Source: Pyrinomonadaceae bacterium (lineage in GTDB: Bacteria; Acidobacteriota; Blastocatellia; Pyrinomonadales; Pyrinomonadaceae). Taken from it: a DNA stretch of 57,245 bases. This document shows positions 5,389-49,155 of the stretch, in pieces (position 1 is the first letter of the stretch; the number at the start of each line of letters is the position of its first letter). The stretch spans positions 1-57,245 of the forward strand of contig DASVVZ010000256.1 in assembly GCA_036389875.1 (NCBI GenBank). Reading direction: 5' to 3'. A program made the position numbers and the translations under genes. The notes under the pieces were generated by a model. That model was not told the DNA's origin and ran no database searches. It saw nothing but the letters and a program-made list of their open reading frames with translations.

Positions 5389-6351
5389 ATGGGAAAGAAG
5401 GGTAAAAAATTTCAGGGCCGCAAGGCGCAGCCCCGGCCAGTAAAGACGGAGGTGCTCCCCACCCTCGACACGAACTATCTGAAGGCATCGGCGGTAAAGC
5501 TCCCCGACTGGGAGTTCGTGCAGATTGTGCAGGTGGGTGCCGGTGGTGGCGGCTCCTTCATGGCGATGCATATAGGGCGGCTGATGCACTCGCTATACAG
5601 GATGGGCAAAGCCTCGCACTTAACTATCGTTGATCCGGACATAGTGAAGGAGGAGAACGTCGGGCGATCGCTCTTCTGCGACGCGGAGTTCGAGGCCGCG
5701 GTGCCGAAAGCGGAGGCCCTGGCGCGCCGCTACGGCCAGGCGTGGGGCTTGAACGTCAGCTCTTACGTGGGCGAGTTCGACGAGAGCATGATTCTCGGCC
5801 GTGAGCTTACAGTAGTGGTTGGCTGCGTAGACAACGCGCGGGCGCGTCAGACTATCAACGACGTGCTCAAGCACAACCCCGAAGATCCAAACGAGCAGCC
5901 CCCCTCCTTCTGGTGGCTCGACAACGGCAACGTCAGCAACTTCGGCCGCGTGCTCTTAGGCTCGGCCTACTCCGCCGAGCACGTGCGTGGGGCATTCCCC
6001 GAGCCCGGAAAATGCGTAGCACTCCCAAGCCCCGCGATTCAATATCCGGGCCTTTTAGAGCCGCAGCCCGAAGAGGAGGCTGCGAGCGCCGACGGGATGA
6101 GCTGCGCGGAGCGGGCGGCGGCGAACCTCCAGAGCCTGAACATCAACGCCGCGATTGTCATCCAGGCCGCAGACATGCTCACGAGACTCCTGGTCACCAG
6201 AGACCTCAAACGCTTCGCGTGCGAAGTGAATCTGTCGTCGGGCGTAATGAAAAGCTCTTACTGCACTCCCGAAGAAGTGGCGCGCGCATCGCACAAGCCA
6301 ACTTCCTTTCTGACGAAGCAAAACAGGCAGGCGGCAGTAAATTATAACTGA
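5389..6351 (+). CDS. ThiF/MoeB/E1-like adenylyltransferase
   Basis: Rossmann loop VQVGAGGGGSF (5533-5556), then DPDIVKEENVGRSLF and VGCVDNARARQTIN, as in the ThiF/E1 family. Confidence 0.85.
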   Translation: MGKKGKKFQGRKAQPRPVKTEVLPTLDTNYLKASAVKLPDWEFVQIVQVGAGGGGSFMAMHIGRLMHSLYRMGKASHLTIVDPDIVKEENVGRSLFCDAEFEAAVPKAEALARRYGQAWGLNVSSYVGEFDESMILGRELTVVVGCVDNARARQTINDVLKHNPEDPNEQPPSFWWLDNGNVSNFGRVLLGSAYSAEHVRGAFPEPGKCVALPSPAIQYPGLLEPQPEEEAASADGMSCAERAAANLQSLNINAAIVIQAADMLTRLLVTRDLKRFACEVNLSSGVMKSSYCTPEEVARASHKPTSFLTKQNRQAAVNYN

Positions 6352-6910: not shown

Positions 6911-7840
6911 TCACTCGTCGTAGCTGAAAGAATTTACAGGGTTCCTCTCCAGATTCTCCCTACCCTTATCATAGCGCTGCACGGTCTTCGGATCCCTATG
7001 TTTTGTCACCATCTGAATGTCCCTATAGCTATGCCCCTTATTCAGCAGGTGCGTGACGACCGTCCGGCGCAGGTCGTGCGGCGAGACCTTCCCCAGGCGG
7101 CCGTAGTCGCCCCACTTCCCTACGATGTAATGCACCATCCTGGGCGATAGTCCCTTGTCGAATTCCAGGCTCCTGTAATTGACCGTGGGCTGGAAGAGGA
7201 AGGCATCCCCTCCCCCGCTCTTGACTGTCTCACGCCGCTTCTGGTCTAGCCTGAGGCAGTCGTCGATCGCGGCCTTGACGTCCTGCGGGAGCGGCCACTT
7301 CTCTTCCCTACCGCCCTTGACCTTGCAGGTCAGAGTCCAGCGCCCCTCTTCCCACCTCACGCTCGAGGCGCGCAGCGCGCAGACCTCGCTGACTCTCAGG
7401 GAGAGCCGCAACATGACGAGCATCATCGCGTAGTCGCGCGCGCCCTCGGGCTTTGACCTGTCCGGGCCAGCCAGGAGGTGCTTGACCTCCTTGGCCGAGA
7501 GCGCCCGCCCCTTCACGACGTCAGAGTTCCGCGGCGCCGAGACGAGCTTCGTCGCTGCCGGGTTGCGGGAGACCATGCCTCCCTCGCGCAGGTAGTCGAA
7601 GAGCGAGCGGACGACGCAGAGCTTGAAGATGATGGTGGAGTCACGTAGATTGCGCGCGCGTAGGCGGTCCCGCCAGGCGGCCACATGTGCCGGCGTCACT
7701 TCATGAGGCGCAACTCCTCCGACGAACCGAGAGAACTCCTCTACAGTCGCCCTATATTTGCGCCTGGTCTCCGCTGACAGAGACTTCTCTACGAAGAGCG
7801 CTATAGCCTTCTGGTCAAATTTTTGAAGCTCTGTGGACAT
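6911..7840 (-). CDS. int: Tyrosine recombinase / phage integrase
   Basis: Catalytic signature R (LRLSLRVSEV), HDLRRT and H..Y (KHRDPKTVQRY). N-terminal core-binding-like domain. Confidence 0.9.
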   Translation of the reverse strand: MSTELQKFDQKAIALFVEKSLSAETRRKYRATVEEFSRFVGGVAPHEVTPAHVAAWRDRLRARNLRDSTIIFKLCVVRSLFDYLREGGMVSRNPAATKLVSAPRNSDVVKGRALSAKEVKHLLAGPDRSKPEGARDYAMMLVMLRLSLRVSEVCALRASSVRWEEGRWTLTCKVKGGREEKWPLPQDVKAAIDDCLRLDQKRRETVKSGGGDAFLFQPTVNYRSLEFDKGLSPRMVHYIVGKWGDYGRLGKVSPHDLRRTVVTHLLNKGHSYRDIQMVTKHRDPKTVQRYDKGRENLERNPVNSFSYDE

Positions 7841-24697: not shown

Positions 24698-24712
24698 AAA
24701 ATATTTTGAGTC
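24693..24712. promoter_or_regulatory. 20-bp palindrome family copy (GACATAAAATATTTTGAGTC)
   Basis: Two mismatches. Spans the tape-measure stop and the start codon of 24176-24697. Confidence 0.5.
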
Positions 24713-27700
24713 AGCTCAGGTCCTCATCTCTTTCTTCCATGTCGTACATTTTTGCAGCAAGCTCCTCGAAGAAATCATCCTTGCTGCTAGCCAGCGCCTT
24801 CTCGGCTGCCGCCTGAGCCAGCTCTTGCAACTGCTGTGGGCTCAAGTTACTGCCCATCACCTGCACGGTGATGGAAGGCGCGAAAGTAACGGGACCAAAA
24901 GCCATAGAAGCAGGAGGGGGTGCAGAAGCGCGGACATAACTGCCGCCATCCTGTGCGCTGCTGACAGCCAGGTTGCGCAAAGCCTCTACGTCCTGAAGCC
25001 AGTCACCCGGGCTCCGGCGCGACAGACTGGCAGGAAATACTTGATTTCTATTTCCGTCTGCATTAAGAGTGCGAGTGTATGCAACGTATTTCTGTAGCTC
25101 ATTATTCGGAGTAACGAATCCGTTAGCGTTAGGCGTAAATAGCTCTACACCGCGCTCGCCTCCGATGTAGTCCACACCTTTAAGCACGCGCCCACCTTTA
25201 GCGAAGTAGCCGCCGAAAGGTCTAACGTTCGGCGTGTTGCCTGTCTGATTTGAAGGTGTCGGAAAAGCGGGGAATGTTGGCCGTTCTATAACAATGGAAT
25301 TTACTTTATCAGCGAGATTCTGAGCAGCAGAAGAGACGTTCTTGAATGCAGGCGGAATCTTATTAGCGGGGTCAATGCACTGGCCGAAAGCGTCTGCGGT
25401 CTGCTTGGCAGGCTCGGCTATGTTTAATATGCTTTGTGCGAAACCTCCCATTACAGAATTATCAAGGGACGGTTTAGCTGGTATCTGTACGCTTGCAAAT
25501 ACGCTCTCTATAGCACGTTGTAGATTAGCTTGGCCTTCGGGCGATAAGCCTATCTTCGGAAGCTCAGTCTGTATAAAGCTCTGGCGAACTTCTGGAATAG
25601 CAAGTTGAGGCGCGAACCTTTGAAGCATCTCTTTGTCTGTAGCTAAAGGCTGATTGCCATAGAAGGGCCGCGCTAATCTGCGATAAAGAGTATTTTCAAA
25701 TTCTGTTGCTGTGAACGTTCCCCTTGCTCTGCTCAGTTCGCCGCCGCGCATAAGAGACTCACGAACAGAGCGAGCAGATACGGAATAGTCAACTACGTCG
25801 CCTTTCTGCCGTCTCTGATTGATAGTGTTGTAATCAAGAGTTGCGCCCTGTTCTCTTCTTAACTGCTCTCTATACGCTTGCACGTTTTTGTAACTGGCGA
25901 ACGCGCCTCCAGCTATCGCCGCAATACTCATAGTCACGGGGTTGGTAGCAAGGCCAGCAGCACCAACCGCGCCCCTGCCTATCAAGCTTGCTCCGCCCGC
26001 AGCTACTTCCGAGTTGATGCCTCCGCCGCCGCTTCCACCGCGTAGCATACCGTTGAAAAGGCCAACTCCGTCTGCGGCCTCCGCGCTCGCTTTACCTAGA
26101 GACAAAAGACCAATCATAGCGGCGGACATGGCCGGATTGTCTGAAGAGGTTGCTTGTAGGCTCTTGATTTGATTTGATAGCTGCTCTGCTACGTTTCCGC
26201 CTAATGTCATAACGGGTGCGCCAGCCGCAGCCCTTGCATTCGTTTGTGAGGCTGTAAATTCTAAGAATTGTCCGAGCGGGTTTCCCCTCTCGAACATCTG
26301 ATTATAAAAGCCCTCAACATTAGGCACGCGCACATAATTCTCAGTCTCTTTCGACAACTGCCTACGCATGAGCATCATCTGCGCTACTTCACGCTTTGCC
26401 GTGCGGTTGCCGAACATCACTTCTAATTGCTTGGCTACAGCTTCTACGTTCGTAGTGTCAACGCCCTTTCTATCGAAAGCGGCCATCAACTTGTCTGTGA
26501 AGGTAAACGGGTCTCTTCCCATGTCGTTACTTATAGGAATAGCCCCGGGAAGCAGGCGCGAAATCTCGCCACGTCTATTGAACTCAACTTTTGAGCGGTC
26601 AAGCAATCCCATTTCGCCCCAATACTTGAGCTTGTGAGCAGGGATTTGACCGCCAACAACAGCGCTATAAAGTGAAGTGAGAGCAGTACCCGCAGCCTTG
26701 CCGCCCATCTGCTGAATGAGTGGCATAAACTTCATAAGCCCTTCGGGGGACATCTGCATGCCTACAATCTGACCTTGCTTGATAAAATTGCGAAACTCAG
26801 AAGGATTTACTTCTCCACCTGTTGCCAGATTCGTCTGCGCTATGAGATTCAAAAACTGTTTGGCTGTATTAGTGTCAATGTCTTTACCCATTAACTCAAC
26901 AGCCTTCACCGCGTCAGAAAATGCTTTGATAGACTGCTCTCGCCCTACTCTGTCACCGTTAAGCGCTTCGGTTGCCGCAACGAATCTTGAAGCTTGAGGC
27001 AATAACGCTATAGCCTCATTAACGCTTCCCATAGTGCCTGTAAGGTTCGTGAGTAGTTCTGTCGCGTCTACTTGACGCACGCCCCTTATTTGAGATGTGA
27101 CCTGTTCCACAGCTTGCAACCCTCTGGCCGTCTCAGCTTGTGGATAGTTGAGAAGTTGAAAGCGGGTCTGTGCGCGTTTGAGTTCAAGGGCAGGGTCAAC
27201 GAATCCACCCCTTACCATGTCGTAAGTGCGCTCTGCTACATAGCCTACGTTGCGGGCAGTCCGCACGCCCCTGTTAAATCTGTCTACGTTGTCGTAGTCG
27301 CCGGATGCGCGCCTCCCCCTGCGGCCTGTGCGGCCTGTCGCTCTAGCCGCTTCACGCTCTAAACGTGCGCGCTCTCTTAGTAGCTTTATGTCTGCTATCT
27401 CTGCTGAGCGCTGCGCGCCAGTGGCCCGCGCTTTGGTTTGAGTAAGCCTAGCCTGCTCACGCTCTAAACGAACGCGGTCTTGCATCAGCTTGACTTGCTC
27501 ACGCACGGCACGAGTCTCGCGGTTTAATGCTGTAGCAGTCGCCCCGCTCTTTGGCAGACCGCTCTTAGGCACGCTGCTATTAGGCTTTAGTTTGTTGAGC
27601 GCTCTTTGAAGTGATATTGCCTCTTTATTCGCGCCGCGCAGTTGCTTAGTGAGAGCAGAGATACGCTTCTCCGCTTGGCCCTGAACCAAGAATTGAAGGA

Positions 27701-27731
27701 TAAGCTTGTGAGTTTCAGAACCTTTGCCCAT
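24711..27731 (-). CDS. Tail tape measure protein
   Basis: Largest tail-module ORF (1006 aa from the ATG at 27731). Helical, Ala/Gly/Gln-rich, with a charged coiled-coil N-terminus and a Gly-rich patch GGSGGGGINSEVAAGGAS. Confidence 0.85.
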   Translation of the reverse strand: MGKGSETHKLILQFLVQGQAEKRISALTKQLRGANKEAISLQRALNKLKPNSSVPKSGLPKSGATATALNRETRAVREQVKLMQDRVRLEREQARLTQTKARATGAQRSAEIADIKLLRERARLEREAARATGRTGRRGRRASGDYDNVDRFNRGVRTARNVGYVAERTYDMVRGGFVDPALELKRAQTRFQLLNYPQAETARGLQAVEQVTSQIRGVRQVDATELLTNLTGTMGSVNEAIALLPQASRFVAATEALNGDRVGREQSIKAFSDAVKAVELMGKDIDTNTAKQFLNLIAQTNLATGGEVNPSEFRNFIKQGQIVGMQMSPEGLMKFMPLIQQMGGKAAGTALTSLYSAVVGGQIPAHKLKYWGEMGLLDRSKVEFNRRGEISRLLPGAIPISNDMGRDPFTFTDKLMAAFDRKGVDTTNVEAVAKQLEVMFGNRTAKREVAQMMLMRRQLSKETENYVRVPNVEGFYNQMFERGNPLGQFLEFTASQTNARAAAGAPVMTLGGNVAEQLSNQIKSLQATSSDNPAMSAAMIGLLSLGKASAEAADGVGLFNGMLRGGSGGGGINSEVAAGGASLIGRGAVGAAGLATNPVTMSIAAIAGGAFASYKNVQAYREQLRREQGATLDYNTINQRRQKGDVVDYSVSARSVRESLMRGGELSRARGTFTATEFENTLYRRLARPFYGNQPLATDKEMLQRFAPQLAIPEVRQSFIQTELPKIGLSPEGQANLQRAIESVFASVQIPAKPSLDNSVMGGFAQSILNIAEPAKQTADAFGQCIDPANKIPPAFKNVSSAAQNLADKVNSIVIERPTFPAFPTPSNQTGNTPNVRPFGGYFAKGGRVLKGVDYIGGERGVELFTPNANGFVTPNNELQKYVAYTRTLNADGNRNQVFPASLSRRSPGDWLQDVEALRNLAVSSAQDGGSYVRASAPPPASMAFGPVTFAPSITVQVMGSNLSPQQLQELAQAAAEKALASSKDDFFEELAAKMYDMEERDEDLS

Positions 27732-27740
27732 ACAAAAAGA

Positions 27741-27774
27741 CCCGCGACTCAAAATGATTTTGAGTTAAAGCGGG
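27741..27774 (-). terminator. Terminator-like hairpin embedding a palindrome family copy (27746-27766, GACTCAAAATGATTTTGAGTT)
   Basis: CCCGC and GCGGG arms extend the palindrome. On the minus strand the stem is followed by TCTTTTTGT, directly before the tape-measure ATG. Confidence 0.55.
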
Positions 27775-27872: not shown

Positions 27873-28247
27873 TCACTGAAACGCTACAGCGATGTTCTCA
27901 ATTCTCCATTTATGGCTTTCCCTGGTTAACGTGATGATGCTTTTACCGCCGCATTTCCATTGAATCACAACCTCTGCGGATTCATGCACGATAGTTTCGT
28001 TTAGTATCTCAAATCCTTTATTCTCACATTCCAGATAAGTCTTGCGCGTAGCAGCCGACAGTATCCTTAAACCTGTTACCTCTTGACTCTGAGCAGCGCG
28101 TGAAGAGTAGTATTGAAGAGAGCCTTCTATATCCCCCTGCTCTAGCTTACCTGCCCAATTCTTAACAGTATCAGAAGGAGAAGAGAGCGAGCCGCAGCAG
28201 ATTAGCAAGATGCATGAGAGGGCTAACAGGGTGGGCGTGCGCGTCAT
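27873..28247 (-). CDS. Secreted/lipoprotein-like small protein (NTF2/DUF4878-like)
   Basis: Signal peptide MTRTPTLLALSCILLICCGSLSSP, then SDTVKNWAGKLEQGDIEGSLQYYS. Confidence 0.6.
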   Translation of the reverse strand: MTRTPTLLALSCILLICCGSLSSPSDTVKNWAGKLEQGDIEGSLQYYSSRAAQSQEVTGLRILSAATRKTYLECENKGFEILNETIVHESAEVVIQWKCGGKSIITLTRESHKWRIENIAVAFQ

Positions 28248-28310
28248 GCGGCAGATTGTAGCTGAAAATATTTAAGGGGCAAAGCTTACACTCTGCCCCT
28301 TCCTTGTCTT

Positions 28311-28475
28311 GCCATGCCTCGCCTCACCATGCGATGCCCAGCCTGCCCACGCCACGCCTCAAAAACCTTAGAAATAATAGCGCGGGATAATAACCATGCC
28401 ATGCCTGCCAAGCCCTGCCCAGCCCGTCCGGGCCAAGCCGTACCATCCCTTGCCCCGCCGCACCAAGCCCTACCT
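28311..28475. repeat. Two blocks with CC dinucleotides at strict 5-nt periodicity (28311-28360, 10 units; 28406-28475, 14 units)
   Basis: gccat gcctc gcctc accat gcgat gccca gcctg cccac gccac gcctc, and tgcca agccc tgccc agccc gtccg ggcca agccg tacca tccct tgccc cgccg cacca agccc tacct. Confidence 0.7.
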
Positions 28476-28490
28476 CGAAAACTTAAGACT
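28473..28490. repeat. Left arm of an 18-bp perfect inverted repeat (CCTCGAAAACTTAAGACT)
   Basis: Exact reverse complement of 30992-31009. Overlaps the stop codon of 28483-28683. Confidence 0.8.
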
Positions 28491-28683
28491 TCTTTTTACT
28501 ACCCTTCTTTGTTGAAGGTCTACCCATTTTTGGCGGCGTGAAGTTTTTAAGGTCACTATCAGGAACGACCCAGCCGCCAACTTGCTTTGCGTTTGGAAAG
28601 CGCCCCTGCCTACACCACAGTCTTACCGTGGTTTCGTCTACGTTCAGCCGCGCAGCAACTTCCGATGTAGATAGTAACTCCAT
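28483..28683 (-). CDS. Excisionase-family / MerR-like HTH DNA-binding protein
   Basis: LLSTSEVAARLNVDETTVRLWCRQGRFPNAKQVGGWVVP. Basic C-terminal tail. Confidence 0.7.
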   Translation of the reverse strand: MELLSTSEVAARLNVDETTVRLWCRQGRFPNAKQVGGWVVPDSDLKNFTPPKMGRPSTKKGSKKKS

Positions 28684-28727
28684 AGGTCAGCATATTAAGA
28701 GCAGAGCAATGTTTTGTCAACAAATAT

Positions 28728-28780
28728 TTACCGCCAGCGAGAATATTTCTATTGACAAAGTTTCTCGCTGGCGGTAAACT
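28728..28780 (+). promoter_or_regulatory. Sigma70-like promoter (TTGACA-17 nt-TAAACT) overlapped by a perfect 16-bp inverted repeat (candidate operator)
   Basis: TTACCGCCAGCGAGAA (28728-28743) pairs with TTCTCGCTGGCGGTAA (28762-28777). The -35 box is at 28752-28757 and the -10 box at 28775-28780. The GAAAGGGG Shine-Dalgarno and the ATG at 28807 follow. Confidence 0.55.
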
Positions 28781-28806
28781 TATAGACATCGAAAGGGGCG
28801 AATCAA

Positions 28807-29016
28807 ATGAGCAAACTTGAGCAGGCCAAACAAAAGCTCGGATTCATAGGCCGCACGCTTGAAAACGGCTATCTGGACTTTGACACCATAGACGAGCTAC
28901 AGCATGCGGTCTGTAGCGTCAAGCGGCTAATCACTGAGCATGAGCAGGATACGTTGCAACTGCCTTTGATAGAGGGCGCTTCTACATTGGTAGTTTATGA
29001 GCCGAGAGAGGCATAA
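28807..29016 (+). CDS. Hypothetical small protein
   Basis: 69-aa ORF with a good Shine-Dalgarno; first gene after the candidate promoter. Confidence 0.5.
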   Translation: MSKLEQAKQKLGFIGRTLENGYLDFDTIDELQHAVCSVKRLITEHEQDTLQLPLIEGASTLVVYEPREA

Positions 29017-29021
29017 GAAGC

Positions 29022-29056
29022 GGGCTTAGGAAAGCGCAGCAACGCTCCCTAAGCCC
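29022..29056 (+). terminator. Imperfect hairpin between the first and second cassette genes (attenuator/terminator candidate)
   Basis: GGGCTTAGGAAAGCG..CGCTCCCTAAGCCC. No clear T-run. Confidence 0.3.
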
Positions 29057-29087
29057 TTCACCATTCACCACTTGAGAGGGGCAAACG

Positions 29088-29333
29088 ATGAAGGGACAGA
29101 ATAACACATCCCGCAAGACAAAGACACGCGCAGAGCTTCGGGCAGAACTGGCACACGACCTTGCGTTGGTTCTCAACAATCCAGAGCTTCCAAAAGAAGT
29201 ATATGAGGGAATCACGGACGACCTGAAAGAGTTTTACAGTATGCTTTCGGGGGAAGGCCAGCGCTACATTAACGACTCAGAGGATTACATCAAACTCGTT
29301 TTAGAGGGCGGCTCTAAAGGGGGTGCGCGCTGA
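29088..29333 (+). CDS. Small protein, paralogue of 29641-29880
   Basis: Shares the basic N-terminus, RAEL...NPELP.E.Y, and the C-terminal KGGAR with the 79-aa ORF. TGATG overlap with the next gene. Confidence 0.55.
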   Translation: MKGQNNTSRKTKTRAELRAELAHDLALVLNNPELPKEVYEGITDDLKEFYSMLSGEGQRYINDSEDYIKLVLEGGSKGGAR

Positions 29334-29644
29334 TGGCTAAGAGAGGCGAAGCAATAGAATCTGGCGGCTTTACAATGCAGCCTTTCACCTCCGCTGATAT
29401 TGACTACATGGTTGAGCTAACGCGACTTGCCGTAAGCTATGAAGACGACGAAGCCACAACCGCCTTCGCACTCTTAATCGCTGGCATCGCAGCCACTGAC
29501 TTTGACCGTGAAACTCTTGCTTGTTTCATCATTGAAACTGCATTAAGCAAGTCAAGAGAAATCCATTACATGATGAGCGACTACATGAATAAGGAGAGCA
29601 AGAGACTGCGAAAAGAGTTAAATAAAGGGGGTTCGCGCTCATGA
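29333..29644 (+). CDS. Hypothetical small protein
   Basis: 103 aa ending KGGSRS. ATGA overlap with the next gene. Confidence 0.5.
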   Translation: MAKRGEAIESGGFTMQPFTSADIDYMVELTRLAVSYEDDEATTAFALLIAGIAATDFDRETLACFIIETALSKSREIHYMMSDYMNKESKRLRKELNKGGSRS

Positions 29645-29880
29645 AAAAGGTTTCCGACACAAAGCGTAAGTCTAGGGTTCAATCCCGCGCTGAACTGGCG
29701 CGGCTGCTCGCCAAAGTAATGGCACACCCTGAACTCCCCTTTGAACTCTACCACGCCATAGGAGATGAAGTTATTACTTGGATTGATAACAACGCCGCAG
29801 AAGACCCGGCTTACATCGAAACAGCACTAAACGCTTATTTTCGGAAAGTGGCGCGGAATAAGAAAGGGGGTGCGCGCTGA
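29641..29880 (+). CDS. Small protein, paralogue of 29088-29333
   Basis: See 29088-29333. The 3' end AAAGGGGGTGCGCGCTGATGGCTAAGA is identical to 29320-29346. Confidence 0.55.
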   Translation: MKKVSDTKRKSRVQSRAELARLLAKVMAHPELPFELYHAIGDEVITWIDNNAAEDPAYIETALNAYFRKVARNKKGGAR

Positions 29881-30335
29881 TGGCTAAGAAATACAACCCC
29901 TTAAACCTTCCTATTCCAGATTGGAACAAGCGGAAAATGACAAGTGTGGACTTTGAAGCTGTCTGCAAACGTGAAGGAATTACAGTAGAACGCACACGTA
30001 TGAAAGGCGACACTCGCGGCCTCTACTTCATACAGGATGGATGCTCGCACATCATCATAGACACACAGTTGAGAGGGATTAGAAGGGTACAAGTTGAGTT
30101 TCACGAATTAGGCCACTACTTCCTACGACACGAAAGAAACAAGCGGGCATTGAAGCAGATTGACCCTGATACGCATAAGTACGTAAAAGGCAGTCGCTCT
30201 CCCTTACAGGAATGGCTAGAACTTGAAGCGAATATAGTCGCCTGCATAGCAATAGCACCGGGTTTGATGGGCGCTGACGAATTACGCCATCTGGCGCTAA
30301 CCGCTACGAGAATCAACTGGCTAAAGCACAAGTAA
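29880..30335 (+). CDS. ImmA/IrrE-like (COG2856-type) zinc metallopeptidase
   Basis: HEXXH in VEFHELGHYFLRHERN. About 150 aa, a typical size. Confidence 0.65.
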   Translation: MAKKYNPLNLPIPDWNKRKMTSVDFEAVCKREGITVERTRMKGDTRGLYFIQDGCSHIIIDTQLRGIRRVQVEFHELGHYFLRHERNKRALKQIDPDTHKYVKGSRSPLQEWLELEANIVACIAIAPGLMGADELRHLALTATRINWLKHK

Positions 30336-30354
30336 ACCCAAAATATTTTGACTC
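30335..30354. promoter_or_regulatory. Degenerate palindrome family copy (AACCCAAAATATTTTGACTC)
   Basis: Three mismatches. Lies between the ImmA-like stop and the 208-aa gene's start. Confidence 0.4.
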
Positions 30355-30372
30355 AAAAAGGAGAATCTAGGC

Positions 30373-30999
30373 ATGGGAAGTAACATCACAAAAGTAAAGG
30401 TCACAATCAAAGGCGTACGGCCTTTGCTATTACATCACTTCGGCCCTGACGCGCTGCCGCTCGAAAAGCGGGAGAAGACAGGCGTAGCAGGCAACGACCC
30501 CGAAGAGTGGCGCAAGACCGCGCTCGTCAATAAGGATGGTCAAATCTACCTTGACCCTTCTTATGCTTTCGCGTGCATTAGAGACGGCGCAAAGTACACG
30601 AAGAAAGGCAAAGGCTCAATCCAAGCTGTGGTTGCCGCAACTCTTCAAGTCTTGGATGATTCTGTGTTGATAAACCGCTATCTCCCCGGCTTCCCTAATG
30701 GTCATGCTTGCGACCTTGCCAGCGCGGAAGCTCCGACGCGAGACGCTAGCGCTCCCGTTTATCTGGACGTTCGCAGCGTCAAGAACCCAAGCACGAAGGG
30801 GCGCAACGTACGCTATCGCGTGGCCTGCTCTGCCGGATGGTCAACCAGCTTCACTATCCTTTTTGATAAGACCATAGTGAGCAGGGCAGAAATGGAAGCC
30901 GTATTGAATGATGCAGGCGTGCTTGTAGGCATCGCAGACGGGCGCTCTATCGGATTCGGGCGCTTCACCGTAGAAAGCTTTGAAGAGTTAGAGTCTTAA
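30373..30999 (+). CDS. Hypothetical protein (208 aa) with a C-terminal glycine-rich loop
   Basis: Good Shine-Dalgarno (AAAGGAG). C-terminal VGIADGRSIGFGRF. No family recognised. Confidence 0.55.
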   Translation: MGSNITKVKVTIKGVRPLLLHHFGPDALPLEKREKTGVAGNDPEEWRKTALVNKDGQIYLDPSYAFACIRDGAKYTKKGKGSIQAVVAATLQVLDDSVLINRYLPGFPNGHACDLASAEAPTRDASAPVYLDVRSVKNPSTKGRNVRYRVACSAGWSTSFTILFDKTIVSRAEMEAVLNDAGVLVGIADGRSIGFGRFTVESFEELES

Positions 31000-31009
31000 G
31001 TTTTCGAGG
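30992..31009. repeat. Right arm of the 18-bp perfect inverted repeat (AGTCTTAAGTTTTCGAGG)
   Basis: Reverse complement of 28473-28490. Overlaps the stop codon of 30373-30999. Confidence 0.8.
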
Positions 31010-31072
31010 CGCGGCTCGGCTCTGCATGGATTGGCGCGGACTGGCGGGGCGAGGCAAGGCGAGGCATGGTAG
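31008..31072. repeat. GG dinucleotides at strict 5-nt periodicity (13 units)
   Basis: ggcgc ggctc ggctc tgcat ggatt ggcgc ggact ggcgg ggcga ggcaa ggcga ggcat ggtag. Mirror image of the CC tracts at 28311-28475. Confidence 0.7.
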
Positions 31073-31090
31073 GCAAGGCAAGGTTCTTTA

Positions 31091-31387
31091 ATGCCAAAGA
31101 AAAGGCAACCTAAAGAAATCTGGCGAGAGACACGACGCAGGATATTGGCGCGAGACGGCTATAGATGTGTCGGGCCAACGTGCGGCGGCGTGTCTCTCAC
31201 AGAACAGACCGCCCACATAGACCACATACGAAGCGGGAAATTAGGGACTAACGCTGACGATAACTTGAGAAGCCTATGCAGGCGATGTCACGTCCTGCGC
31301 GTTGATTTCAGGCATAGAGGAATGATTGCTAATGCTTTGAGAGATGGAATCATTCCTCCGAACTGGCGCGGGTTGGTTTGGGACTGA
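31091..31387 (+). CDS. HNH endonuclease
   Basis: CVGPTCGG...AHIDHIRSGKLGTNADDNLRSLCRRCH. Confidence 0.8.
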   Translation: MPKKRQPKEIWRETRRRILARDGYRCVGPTCGGVSLTEQTAHIDHIRSGKLGTNADDNLRSLCRRCHVLRVDFRHRGMIANALRDGIIPPNWRGLVWD

Positions 31388-31513
31388 CGATAGTACGAAG
31401 GTATTGAATCTTCCGCACTTCTCACATTTAATTTCAATACAACCAACGGTTTTAGGACTCACCTTTGCGGCAAGCCTAAAACAGTCCTTTTGATTGCATC
31501 GAAGTTTTATCAT
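31274..31513 (-). CDS. Mu Com-like zinc-finger protein
   Basis: MIKLRCNQKDCFRLAAKVSPKTVGCIEIKCEKCGRFN resembles the Mu Com motif (RC..C...L......iEIkCpRC). Its 3' part overlaps the convergent HNH gene, so the true end is uncertain. Confidence 0.45.
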   Translation of the reverse strand: MIKLRCNQKDCFRLAAKVSPKTVGCIEIKCEKCGRFNTFVLSSVPNQPAPVRRNDSISQSISNHSSMPEINAQDVTSPA

Positions 31514-31668
31514 TTTCTGTCGCTTTTTCGAGCAGGTGGAGTACGGCTAGGGACTACCTGATAATGATTCAACGATCCACAGTGAAAACACTTTTTGTAA
31601 ATACCCGGCGGAGTCCTATCTGGATACTCCGCTCTCTTTCTGCAATTACTGCAAGCCGTAACAATCAT
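31510..31668 (-). CDS. Small zinc-ribbon protein (52 aa; below the track cutoff)
   Basis: Hand translation MIVTACSNCRKRAEYPDRTPPGIYKKCFHCGSLNHYQVVPSRTPPARKSDRK. ATGA overlaps at both ends. Confidence 0.45.
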   Translation of the reverse strand: MIVTACSNCRKRAEYPDRTPPGIYKKCFHCGSLNHYQVVPSRTPPARKSDRK

Positions 31669-31847
31669 CTTCTATTGCGAGTTCTTAATGCTTTCGCTGT
31701 TTCCGCAGCATCTTCGTTGATAAAACTTACATAAGTATTACGCCTTATCACAGGCAAGGCCATAACTTCGGCTTCACTCATGCCTGTTTCCTGCATCAGC
31801 CTGTATATAGTTCGCAGGTAAGCTTTCTTCTTCTTCTCCCTCCGCAC
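31665..31847 (-). CDS. Overlapping ORF downstream of the tail chaperone (candidate frameshift extension)
   Basis: Overlaps the 3' end of 31774-32445 in the +1 frame, across a (GAA)4-A purine tract. Confidence 0.4.
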   Translation of the reverse strand: MRREKKKKAYLRTIYRLMQETGMSEAEVMALPVIRRNTYVSFINEDAAETAKALRTRNRR

Positions 31848-32445
31848 GAAAGGAATTTAACCAGCCACTCTCCTTTTCAGCTAAAGCGAACAAGCTTATA
31901 GCGTCCAAACCCTCGAACATATCCAGAGGCACAGGCCCTTTCATAGTCGCCGTGCCCTCTGATTGGGAAAGCTCCGAAATCTCTTTACCTATAATGAGGT
32001 AGTTCTTTCGCAACCCCTCCAGCTCGTCGGCTTCGCCCTCCATATAGGCGTCTATCAGCGTGCCGAACTCGACCACGTCATACTCAACGCCCCCGCGCGT
32101 GAAAGGGAAAGGCAGCTGGATCTTGCTGTCTGAAAGCTGCTTAGGTTTTCGACCGCCTGCTGTTTTCAGTAGGAAGGCGTTATAGCCGCGAGCCAGCGCC
32201 ATTCGATCCGGGCGATTAAGTGACATGAGAACAGTCATCGGCACCGGCATCCTTAAATCACCGAAAGAGGTGATGGCGCCGCCCAGCATCATGAGCTGGC
32301 TTTGCGTCTCTTTGTCGAACCCTTCCTCCTCGCTCATTTCGAAAAGGTCACGGCCCGTAAGCCTTCTGCCGAACACAACCTTGCTGTGCCTCACCTGGTC
32401 AGGTCCGGTGTAACCGAACCTGAGATTAACCTCGACGTTACTCAT
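31774..32445 (-). CDS. Tail assembly chaperone-like protein (by position)
   Basis: 223-aa acidic ORF immediately after the tube gene, with an overlapping downstream ORF. Confidence 0.5.
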   Translation of the reverse strand: MSNVEVNLRFGYTGPDQVRHSKVVFGRRLTGRDLFEMSEEEGFDKETQSQLMMLGGAITSFGDLRMPVPMTVLMSLNRPDRMALARGYNAFLLKTAGGRKPKQLSDSKIQLPFPFTRGGVEYDVVEFGTLIDAYMEGEADELEGLRKNYLIIGKEISELSQSEGTATMKGPVPLDMFEGLDAISLFALAEKESGWLNSFRAEGEEEESLPANYIQADAGNRHE

Positions 32446-41158: not shown

Positions 41159-41222
41159 GCATTATGGGGTTAAGGTGCAGGGCTTGTGTGTGAACAACCT
41201 CGAAAACAACCTCGAAAACAAC
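41159..41222 (-). promoter_or_regulatory. 64-bp repeat, copy 1; contains tandem GTTGTTTTCGAGG on the minus strand
   Basis: The 37-nt core at 41186-41222 is identical to 49119-49155. Lies upstream of 40588-41088. Confidence 0.6.
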
Positions 41223-41241
41223 CTTGCGCGCACTACAAAAA

Positions 41242-49091: not shown

Positions 49092-49155
49092 GCATTATGT
49101 GGGCAGGGGTGGCTGGGCGTGTGTGAACAACCTCGAAAACAACCTCGAAAACAAC
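49092..49155 (-). promoter_or_regulatory. 64-bp repeat, copy 2 (tandem GTTGTTTTCGAGG on the minus strand)
   Basis: The 37-nt core at 49119-49155 is identical to 41186-41222. Confidence 0.6.

Follow-up and report, generated by a model that had tools for sequence, protein, structure and literature searches.

A probable HNH-linked VIPR system with guide RNA genes on both arms of a divergent cassette in a temperate tailed phage

VIPR (Viral Interference Programmable Repeat) systems have been described in two bioRxiv preprints of 2026 (10.64898/2026.04.26.720920; 10.64898/2026.04.26.720927), according to which Vipr is a minimal RAMP protein that polymerises along a VIPR guide RNA (vrRNA) of 9–16 YNNGG repeats, with one protomer per repeat. 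As these preprints describe it, the protomer binds a 5-nt GGY-NN repeat (10.64898/2026.04.26.720927), the GGY is buried in Vipr, and the two variable bases pair with double-stranded DNA while every third target base is skipped; the reported outcome is the transcriptional silencing of competing phages and satellites (10.64898/2026.04.26.720920; 10.64898/2026.04.26.720927). The published vrRNA genes lie both upstream and downstream of vipr, and an accessory gene, vap, is said there to encode a DNA-binding protein or, in types III–V, a nuclease or helicase, with an HNH domain among the examples.

Here we describe a locus on contig DASVVZ010000256.1 of a Pyrinomonadaceae bacterium, of which a stretch of 57,245 bp (hereafter, the window) was analysed. 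The region 28274–31387 of the window is very probably a VIPR system residing in a temperate tailed phage, and we are highly confident that the phased GG/CC tracts that drew attention to it are vrRNA genes lying beside a Cas7-like Vipr and an HNH nuclease. This reading is based on homology, protein fold, repeat statistics, and gene linkage; by analogy with the systems in the preprints, the locus would also express the RNAs, form a ribonucleoprotein, read DNA, and share their biological role. The VIPR signature, public only since April 2026, had been picked out from the raw sequence alone by a first-pass annotation, which knew of no described element with this layout; alternating GGY/NN vrRNAs flanking vipr were in fact described in the 2026 preprints, and the locus adds a further member to a known system. 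What is particular to it is the invariable link to HNH, the presence of guides on both divergent arms, a possible helix-turn-helix (HTH)/peptidase switch, and a phage host that is likely to be an acidobacterium.

A Vipr homolog beside phased GGY-NN tracts

The gene at 30373–30999 (plus strand) encodes a 208-aa protein that homology and a fold model identify as Vipr, a minimal Cas7-like RAMP expected to polymerise on vrRNA repeats. The profile of its family matched one solved structure, PDB 36pp_D, entitled "SUSP1 Vipr protein" (E=2.9e-8), and the single sequence matched the same chain with E=2e-7. The protein falls into PHROG 4652 (annotated as function unknown), and a protein search returned 1,579 homologs at E≤0.001, the named ones coming from metagenome-assembled genomes (MAGs) of Pyrinomonadaceae. 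A tblastn search of GenBank phages yielded 117 records, nearly all of them Felixounavirus-like phages of Escherichia, Salmonella, and Shigella, a group to which SUSP1 presumably belongs; 116 of the 117 covered at least 80% of the query, with about 29% identity among the 30 matches listed, and identity to the Felixounavirus Vipr homologs was likewise about 29% over 95% of the length. An AlphaFold model of the protein (predicted local distance difference test score, 86; predicted template modelling score, 0.82) matched Csm3/Cas7 of type III and type VII CRISPR complexes with E~2e-8 and a probability of 1.0. His-21, Arg-149, Asp-189, and Arg-191 align to the GGY-contacting His-17, Arg-138, Asp-177, and Arg-179 of SUSP1, four of five contact residues being conserved according to the roles assigned in the preprint (10.64898/2026.04.26.720927). 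In our clade alignment (A1), Arg-149 and Arg-191 were invariant and His-21 nearly so; Asp-189 was absent from the list of conserved positions. Together, these results indicate that the protein is a minimal-RAMP Vipr carrying GGY-recognising residues.

Three tracts close to this gene consist of pentamers with GG in a fixed phase. vrRNA-L1 (28474 to 28405, minus strand) has GG at the start of 14/14 pentamers, all of them GGYNN units, and is followed by CAGG CATGG CATGG. vrRNA-L2 (28358 to 28294, minus strand) has GG at the start of 11 of its 13 units, which read GGCGT GGCGT GGGCA GGCTG GGCAT CGCAT GGTGA GGCGA GGCAT GGCAA GACAA GGAAG GGGCA, the last ones overlapping a terminator stem. vrRNA-R (31008–31072, plus strand) comprises 13 units, 12 of which begin with GG, the exception being TGCAT at 31023–31027; its guide dinucleotides are GC TC TC AT TT GC CT GG GA AA GA AT AG. 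A scan of the whole window found phased GG/CC at these three places only, where 10–12 phased dinucleotides were counted per 12-pentamer window compared with never more than 7 in 50 first-order Markov sequences simulated from the window. Tandem Repeats Finder detected only period-5 fragments at the tracts because their units are degenerate. The tracts noticed in the first-pass annotation are thus a real, noncoding, and strand-specific feature whose 5-nt phasing exceeds that of control sequences. The phasing, called strict there, is without exception at 28405–28474 but holds for only nine of ten pentamers at 28311–28360 (CGCAT breaks it) and 12 of 13 in the right tract (TGCAT), and is better called nearly strict. 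Its suggestion that the tracts could hold a protein when transcribed also agrees with VIPR systems, in which one Vipr protomer is described for each 5-nt GGY-NN repeat (10.64898/2026.04.26.720927).

The same repeat form recurred in related loci. Among 523 units from 34 tracts of the window and its relatives, the frequencies at positions 1–3 were G 0.95, G 0.93, and Y 0.91, and positions 4 and 5 carried only 0.09 and 0.05 bits; because the tracts were found by GG phasing, the GG columns are biased, and the Y and NN columns alone are independent evidence. The 13, 14, and 13 units of the window tracts lie inside the range of 9–16 given in the preprints. As a positive control, the same finder recovered three tracts upstream and two downstream of vipr in the Felixounavirus VpaE1, each followed by a conserved tail. 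All 11 IMG/VR loci encoding a homolog had phased GG tracts just downstream of vipr on the same strand. Downstream sequence of 700 bp or more was available after vipr in 63 related loci from viruses, MAGs, and metagenomes; 59 of these had one or more same-strand tracts within 1.5 kb downstream, and all 63 had a downstream HNH homolog. Opposite-strand upstream tracts were found in 10 listed loci (8 without near-identical duplicates), most loci having tracts on one side only. Conversely, 1.55 Mb of unrelated viral DNA contained no more than two tracts, both weak, identical to each other, and located in a G-rich gene, and about 1 Mb of unrelated phage DNA gave none; the latter control came from an IMG/VR scan with 14 bases of the inverted-repeat arm described below (TTAAGTTTTCGAGG), which had returned chance matches only (at least 118). 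A blastn search of GenBank phages with the cassette found no match. Together, the form of the repeats and their position on the vipr strand, flanking that gene, are those of vrRNA genes.

The closest viral relative (locus L119) differs from the window chiefly within the tract. Its 5′ flank is identical at 15/18 positions and its 3′ end at 29/33, and vipr and HNH share 74% and 70% identity, respectively; the tract interiors are 53% identical and consist of 13 units in the window versus 17 in the relative. We regard this contrast as guide-like variation.

These findings suggest how the locus may act. The 208-aa protein would serve as the minimal Cas7-like RAMP, and the three phased tracts as vrRNA genes, each specifying an RNA of 13–14 GG-Y-N-N pentamers. 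By homology with the solved SUSP1 complex, every pentamer would be bound by one Vipr protomer, with GGY buried and the two variable bases presented, and the row of NN dinucleotides would read double-stranded DNA, passing over one target base at every repeat and so specifying a target of ~39–42 bp. The type II systems that have been studied silence the transcription of competing phages and satellites; given the invariably linked HNH nuclease, the target here is perhaps also cut.

Guide boundaries and the inverted repeat

The mirror-image layout of the cassette can be read as two transcription units diverging from a central promoter/operator region at 28692–28780. The leftward unit would run from an HTH_17 gene through vrRNA-L1 and vrRNA-L2 to a terminator, and the rightward unit from small open reading frames (ORFs) through an M78 peptidase gene, vipr, and vrRNA-R to HNH; the two sides would mirror each other because each unit has vrRNAs at its end, encoded on its own sense strand. 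The 18-bp arms bounding the cassette core, CCTCGAAAACTTAAGACT (28473–28490) and AGTCTTAAGTTTTCGAGG (30992–31009), are exact reverse complements, as the first-pass annotation had reported, and cannot be extended by one base either way. In the left arm, the HTH_17 gene contributes its last codon and stop (TCT TAA), which are joined to the vrRNA 5′ boundary GTTTTCGA and the first GG; the right arm has the same composition, with the last codon and stop of vipr (also TCT TAA), GTTTTCGA, and the first GG. The stop codons therefore do lie inside the arms, but the two genes, which had been taken to face inward, read outward from the central divergent promoter region (HTH_17, 28483–28683, minus; the 208-aa gene, 30373–30999, plus).

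A degenerate third copy of the arm, TCTAAGGTTTTTGA-GG, precedes vrRNA-L2 and marks its 5′ boundary (TTTCTAAGGTTTTTGA, 28359–28376, minus strand), near a weak promoter-like site at 28402–28374. Close relatives have similar 5′ flanks 8–11 nt past the stop codon (GAGTTTTCCC, GATTTTACCC, AAGTTTTCGG, and AAGTTTACAT), and the C at position −3 of the arm is the Y of the first YNNGG unit. The arm of the inverted repeat is accordingly the vrRNA 5′ boundary, present once in each orientation; it is seen twice in opposite orientation because both divergent units end in vrRNAs. The perfect identity of the arms extends to the last codon of two unrelated genes and may most simply reflect a recent duplication or gene conversion of the guide boundary; other candidate explanations are an RNase E-like site and a promoter −10 element (TAAGTT). 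A TTAAGT-like motif stands 4–13 nt upstream of the first GG in the window (30994–30999 and 28483–28488) and in VpaE1 (locus L203; 2050–2067, 2172–2189, and 3709–3722). It is found in this clade as well as in a distantly related clade of E. coli phages and may represent a −10-like or processing element common to both.

At the other end, the conserved 3′ end of vrRNA-R (GGCGAGGCATGGTAGGCAAGGCAAGGTTCTTTA, 31058–31090, plus strand) is 88% identical to the corresponding stretch of L119 and holds the ribosome-binding site of HNH. Near the 3′ end, many tracts have one 4-nt unit, giving a phase shift of −1, and then two identical units, CAAGG CAAGG or CATGG CATGG (window, 31057–31084; L119, 5699–5725); the 4-nt unit and the doubled unit may form a clade-specific 3′ handle. 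No conserved fold was seen in the 3′ tail: vrRNA-L2 ends in the terminator hairpin, and the GGCAAGRCAAGG-type end recurs. Tract R folds less stably than its shuffled versions (z=+1.8), which fits a single-stranded, protein-bound guide.

An unlikely extension of these observations is that the conserved boundaries (the 5′ stop-codon/GTTTTCGA element and the 3′ GGCAAGGCAAGG end) act as recombination handles by which whole guide modules are exchanged or copied from one position or phage to another, an exchange that the always-linked HNH nuclease might initiate. The near-identical boundaries, wholly replaced interior, and differing unit number of the window and L119 are compatible with such handles and also with simple hypermutation and selection. 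If true, recombination at the boundaries would provide a route of VIPR guide acquisition, which the preprints, as far as they go into it, leave unexplained.

Alternative readings and the search for targets

The inverted repeat and mirrored tracts could also be viewed at the DNA level as marking the two ends of a 2.5-kb cassette that is transposon-like or invertible, the tracts being protein-binding sites on DNA, and the first-pass annotation had listed transposon-like ends and recombination sites among its explanations. A perfect repeat of this length is expected by chance only ~6e-5 times per 2.8 kb by our arithmetic, the cassette inserted between tail-chaperone and tape-measure genes has one arm at each edge in symmetrical positions, and the HNH nuclease adjoins one of the arms. 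We nevertheless consider this view very improbable, since no transposase, invertase, or recombinase gene was found within 28311–31387 and the perfect arms are specific to the window, the two 5′ flanks of L119 differing from each other. Moreover, downstream same-strand tracts are near-universal among the related loci, whereas upstream opposite-strand tracts are confined to the few listed above, leaving most loci one-sided; the tracts lie on whichever strand encodes the adjacent gene and show the GGY-NN profile of an RNA guide, and the third, degenerate arm copy before vrRNA-L2 lies inside the supposed end.

Alternatively, the tracts might be regulatory RNA leaders or 3′ untranslated regions that work without Vipr, as a two-tetrad G-quadruplex or as a sponge for a CsrA/RsmA-type GG-binding protein, and control the HNH and lipoprotein-like genes. 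G2N3 repeats can in principle form weak G-quadruplexes, and the right tract, as had been noted from the start, stands directly upstream of HNH, its 3′ end holding the ribosome-binding site of that gene. The corresponding claim for the left side did not stand, because a terminator-like hairpin (28301–28274) severs the left tracts from the lipoprotein-like gene. A Vipr-independent leader is further disfavoured by the conserved third base, which is a pyrimidine (0.91) and not the A of the CsrA site GGA, by the presence of tracts beside a Vipr homolog in 59/63 loci and their virtual absence from unrelated phage DNA, and by tracts that come after HNH or before terminators with no gene downstream; there is very little to be said for it in terms of probability. 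Still less credit is due to the idea that the tracts are ordinary coding sequence (for instance, the ORF at 28314–28541) or a compositional accident. ORFs of 40–75 aa do overlap the left tracts, but Pfam gave nothing significant for them (the best match, at E=0.014, fell short of the curated cut-off), and codon structure is incompatible with a strict period of 5 nt. In addition, the phasing seen here was never attained in the simulations, and dozens of independent loci whose NN content is unrelated show the same feature; this idea is effectively refuted.

Several other candidates were set aside during the analysis. G-quadruplexes, a CsrA sponge, and TRAP-like attenuation were dropped after the Vipr homology and gene linkage had been found, a G-quadruplex not being needed to explain the data, and the same applied to an antisense-strand Rho-utilisation site, iterons or pac sites, and a pentapeptide-repeat coding region. 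Rfam at gathering thresholds and ARAGORN returned nothing in the window, by which hammerhead-interspersed arrays were ruled out there. CRISPR-Cas was rejected as well: Tandem Repeats Finder found no CRISPR-like array in the window, and neither Pfam nor PADLOC found cas families in the cassette.

The searches for what the guides might read bear on the VIPR reading itself. Under the 1-nt skip rule, no self-target was found in the window, the best candidate matching 69% of NN positions; the systems in the preprints are likewise reported to have no self-target. Matches at 75% or more of NN positions in the window and the loci analysed were limited to three chance-level hits of 18/24 for the shortest guide. 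The following points weigh against our interpretation. For none of the three vrRNAs did five IMG/VR seed scans and one GTDB scan reveal a DNA target; the scans used exact seeds of 8–9 units and so miss targets with scattered mismatches, and extension gave chance-level matches, at best 22/26, 21/28, and 20/24. By our own arithmetic, databases of this size should yield hundreds of chance matches at 80% over 26 positions, so only near-perfect matches count. When 136 clade guides were compared all-against-all on 2.1 Mb, a 1-nt skip was not favoured over skips of 0, 2, or 3. Trp-178 of SUSP1, which stacks on G2, corresponds to Gly-190 here; nothing resembling the structured 3′ pseudoknot tail of SUSP1 (~40 nt) was observed, only the short conserved GGCAAGRCAAGG-type end; and knowledge of VIPR as a whole rests on two preprints.

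The cassette, its phage, and known systems

The leftward unit is closed after vrRNA-L2 by the terminator-like hairpin (28274–28301, minus strand), with a 12-bp stem and a T-rich tail, which was also found by folding. The first gene of this unit encodes a 66-aa MerR/excisionase-type DNA-binding protein of the HTH_17 family (PF12728, E=1.6e-11), likely the regulator of the cassette or else a second accessory protein. PF12728 genes are located divergently upstream of vipr in four relatives (L130, L131, L132, and L134), and L119 has a 71-aa ORF in this place, matched by position only. Divergent sigma-70-like promoters occupy the space between the two units (plus, TTGACA-17-TAAACT, 28752–28780; minus, TTGACA-17-TAATAT, 28720–28692), overlaid by a 22-nt operator-like inverted repeat (28727–28748/28757–28778). 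The accessory position directly downstream of vipr is taken by the gene for a 98-aa HNH endonuclease (31091–31387, plus strand; PF01844), the conserved vap gene of this Vipr clade; together with the divergent HTH_17 genes of several loci, it gives the cassette the accessory genes expected of a VIPR system.

Between the promoters and vipr, four small ORFs of 69, 81, 103, and 79 aa (28807–29880, plus strand) have no family match and occupy a slot whose cargo varies between relatives. A 27-nt direct repeat (AAAGGGGGTGCGCGCTGATGGCTAAGA) recurs at three gene junctions there (29316–29342, 29624–29650, and 29863–29889; two copies identical, one 78%), and the 81-aa (29088–29333) and 79-aa (29641–29880) ORFs both end in it and look paralogous; the junction repeats and the resemblance of these ORFs suggest a tandemly duplicated two-gene module inside the cassette. 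The next gene encodes an M78/ImmA-IrrE-like metallopeptidase with an HELGH motif (29880–30335, plus strand; PF06114; phrog_87; weak PADLOC match to capP, E=3.2e-5). The HTH_17 protein, the 22-nt operator-like repeat, and the M78 peptidase resemble a switch made of a repressor and an anti-repressor protease, and Peptidase_S24 genes were found in the corresponding slot of L130 (3882–4685); a stress or induction signal may thus control the VIPR cassette. In the same relative, which is a Pyrinomonadaceae MAG, an AAA_15/AAA_21 ATPase gene (1–1257) adjoins the homologous cassette; this domain pair is typical of defence systems.

The surrounding DNA is that of a phage, with genes for the terminase large subunit, capsid, sheath, tube, tail chaperone, a 1,013-aa tape measure, and an integrase. 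The cassette lies between the tail chaperone (31774–32445) and tape measure (24711–27752) genes, on the strand opposite to both. A ThiF-family protein and a tyrosine integrase are encoded at the left of the window (5389–6351 and 6911–7840), so the phage is temperate. A search of IMG/VR with the tail-assembly chaperone for related phages having an empty chaperone–tape measure site found no relatives. Between cassette and tape measure, a minus-strand gene (27873–28247) encodes a 124-aa protein with an N terminus resembling a signal peptide and lipobox and with no family match; this gene has its own promoter-like site (28282–28255) and resembles a moron. Between HNH and the tail chaperone are two small Cys-rich, zinc-ribbon-like ORFs (31274–31513 and 31510–31668, minus strand), the first overlapping the 3′ end of HNH by ~110 nt on the opposite strand. 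In the head/packaging region, the same 12-mer (AACAACCTCGAA) forms two perfect tandem arrays of 2.5–2.7 copies each, ~8 kb apart (41193–41224 and 49126–49155).

The locus adds a well-defined HNH-linked clade of Vipr, whose carriers are phages, probably of soil Acidobacteriota. That this clade is both phage-borne and nuclease-associated bears on the suggestion in the preprints of a host-defence role for nuclease-carrying types. With three natural guides of 13–14 units, conserved 5′ and 3′ guide boundaries, and a possible repressor/peptidase switch, the locus can be used to study how vrRNAs are produced and regulated and whether the HNH partner turns silencing into cleavage.

Among known RNA–protein systems, TRAP with the trp leader and CsrA with CsrB resemble the tracts in that short G-containing RNA motifs recur every ~5 nt and are each bound by one protein subunit. 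Their folds are unrelated to that of Vipr, however, their motifs are GAG/UAG or GGA as opposed to GGY, and their RNAs sequester or sense a regulator, with no reading of DNA. With Csm3, Cmr4, and Cas7, the 208-aa protein shares the RAMP fold (an RRM core, a glycine-rich loop GFGRF at 194–198, and a thumb hairpin; top structural matches with E~2e-8). According to the preprint, polymerisation along a guide RNA with periodic base flipping is also common to Vipr and the class 1 CRISPR-Cas backbone (10.64898/2026.04.26.720927). Unlike class 1 CRISPR-Cas, the window has no repeat-spacer array, and no other cas genes were found in it; the period here is 5 nt with two read bases compared with 6 nt with five, and the guide is a degenerate tandem repeat in place of a spacer.

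Within VIPR, the locus shares with the nuclease-associated types III–V, as the preprints outline them, an accessory gene for a predicted nuclease. Because the text gives enzymes only to types III–V, the HNH accessory points to type III by elimination, although Fig. S21 of the VIPR preprint places the HNH domain among type II, III, and VII accessory proteins, so that this is a pointer and not a type assignment. Types III and V are described as enriched in host defence islands, whereas the present cassette is located among the tail genes of a temperate phage; another difference from types III–V is that the window has three vrRNAs. With type II VIPR, represented by Escherichia phage SUSP1 and a Pseudomonas fulva prophage (10.64898/2026.04.26.720920; 10.64898/2026.04.26.720927), it has in common a homologous Vipr of ~200 aa, GGY-NN pentamer vrRNAs of 9–16 units encoded on the vipr strand in intergenic DNA flanking that gene, carriage by a phage, an adjacent accessory gene, and no self-targeting. 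In contrast to type II as described there, no targets were found for the present guides, the 40-nt pseudoknot tail is replaced by a short GGCAAGRCAAGG-type 3′ end, and Trp-178 by Gly-190. The accessory gene encodes a 98-aa HNH nuclease instead of a DNA-binding protein, the likely host lineage is Acidobacteriota, as judged from close homologs in Pyrinomonadaceae MAGs, and two vrRNAs are appended to the divergent HTH_17 gene, an arrangement that gives rise to the mirror-image layout and its 18-bp inverted repeat.

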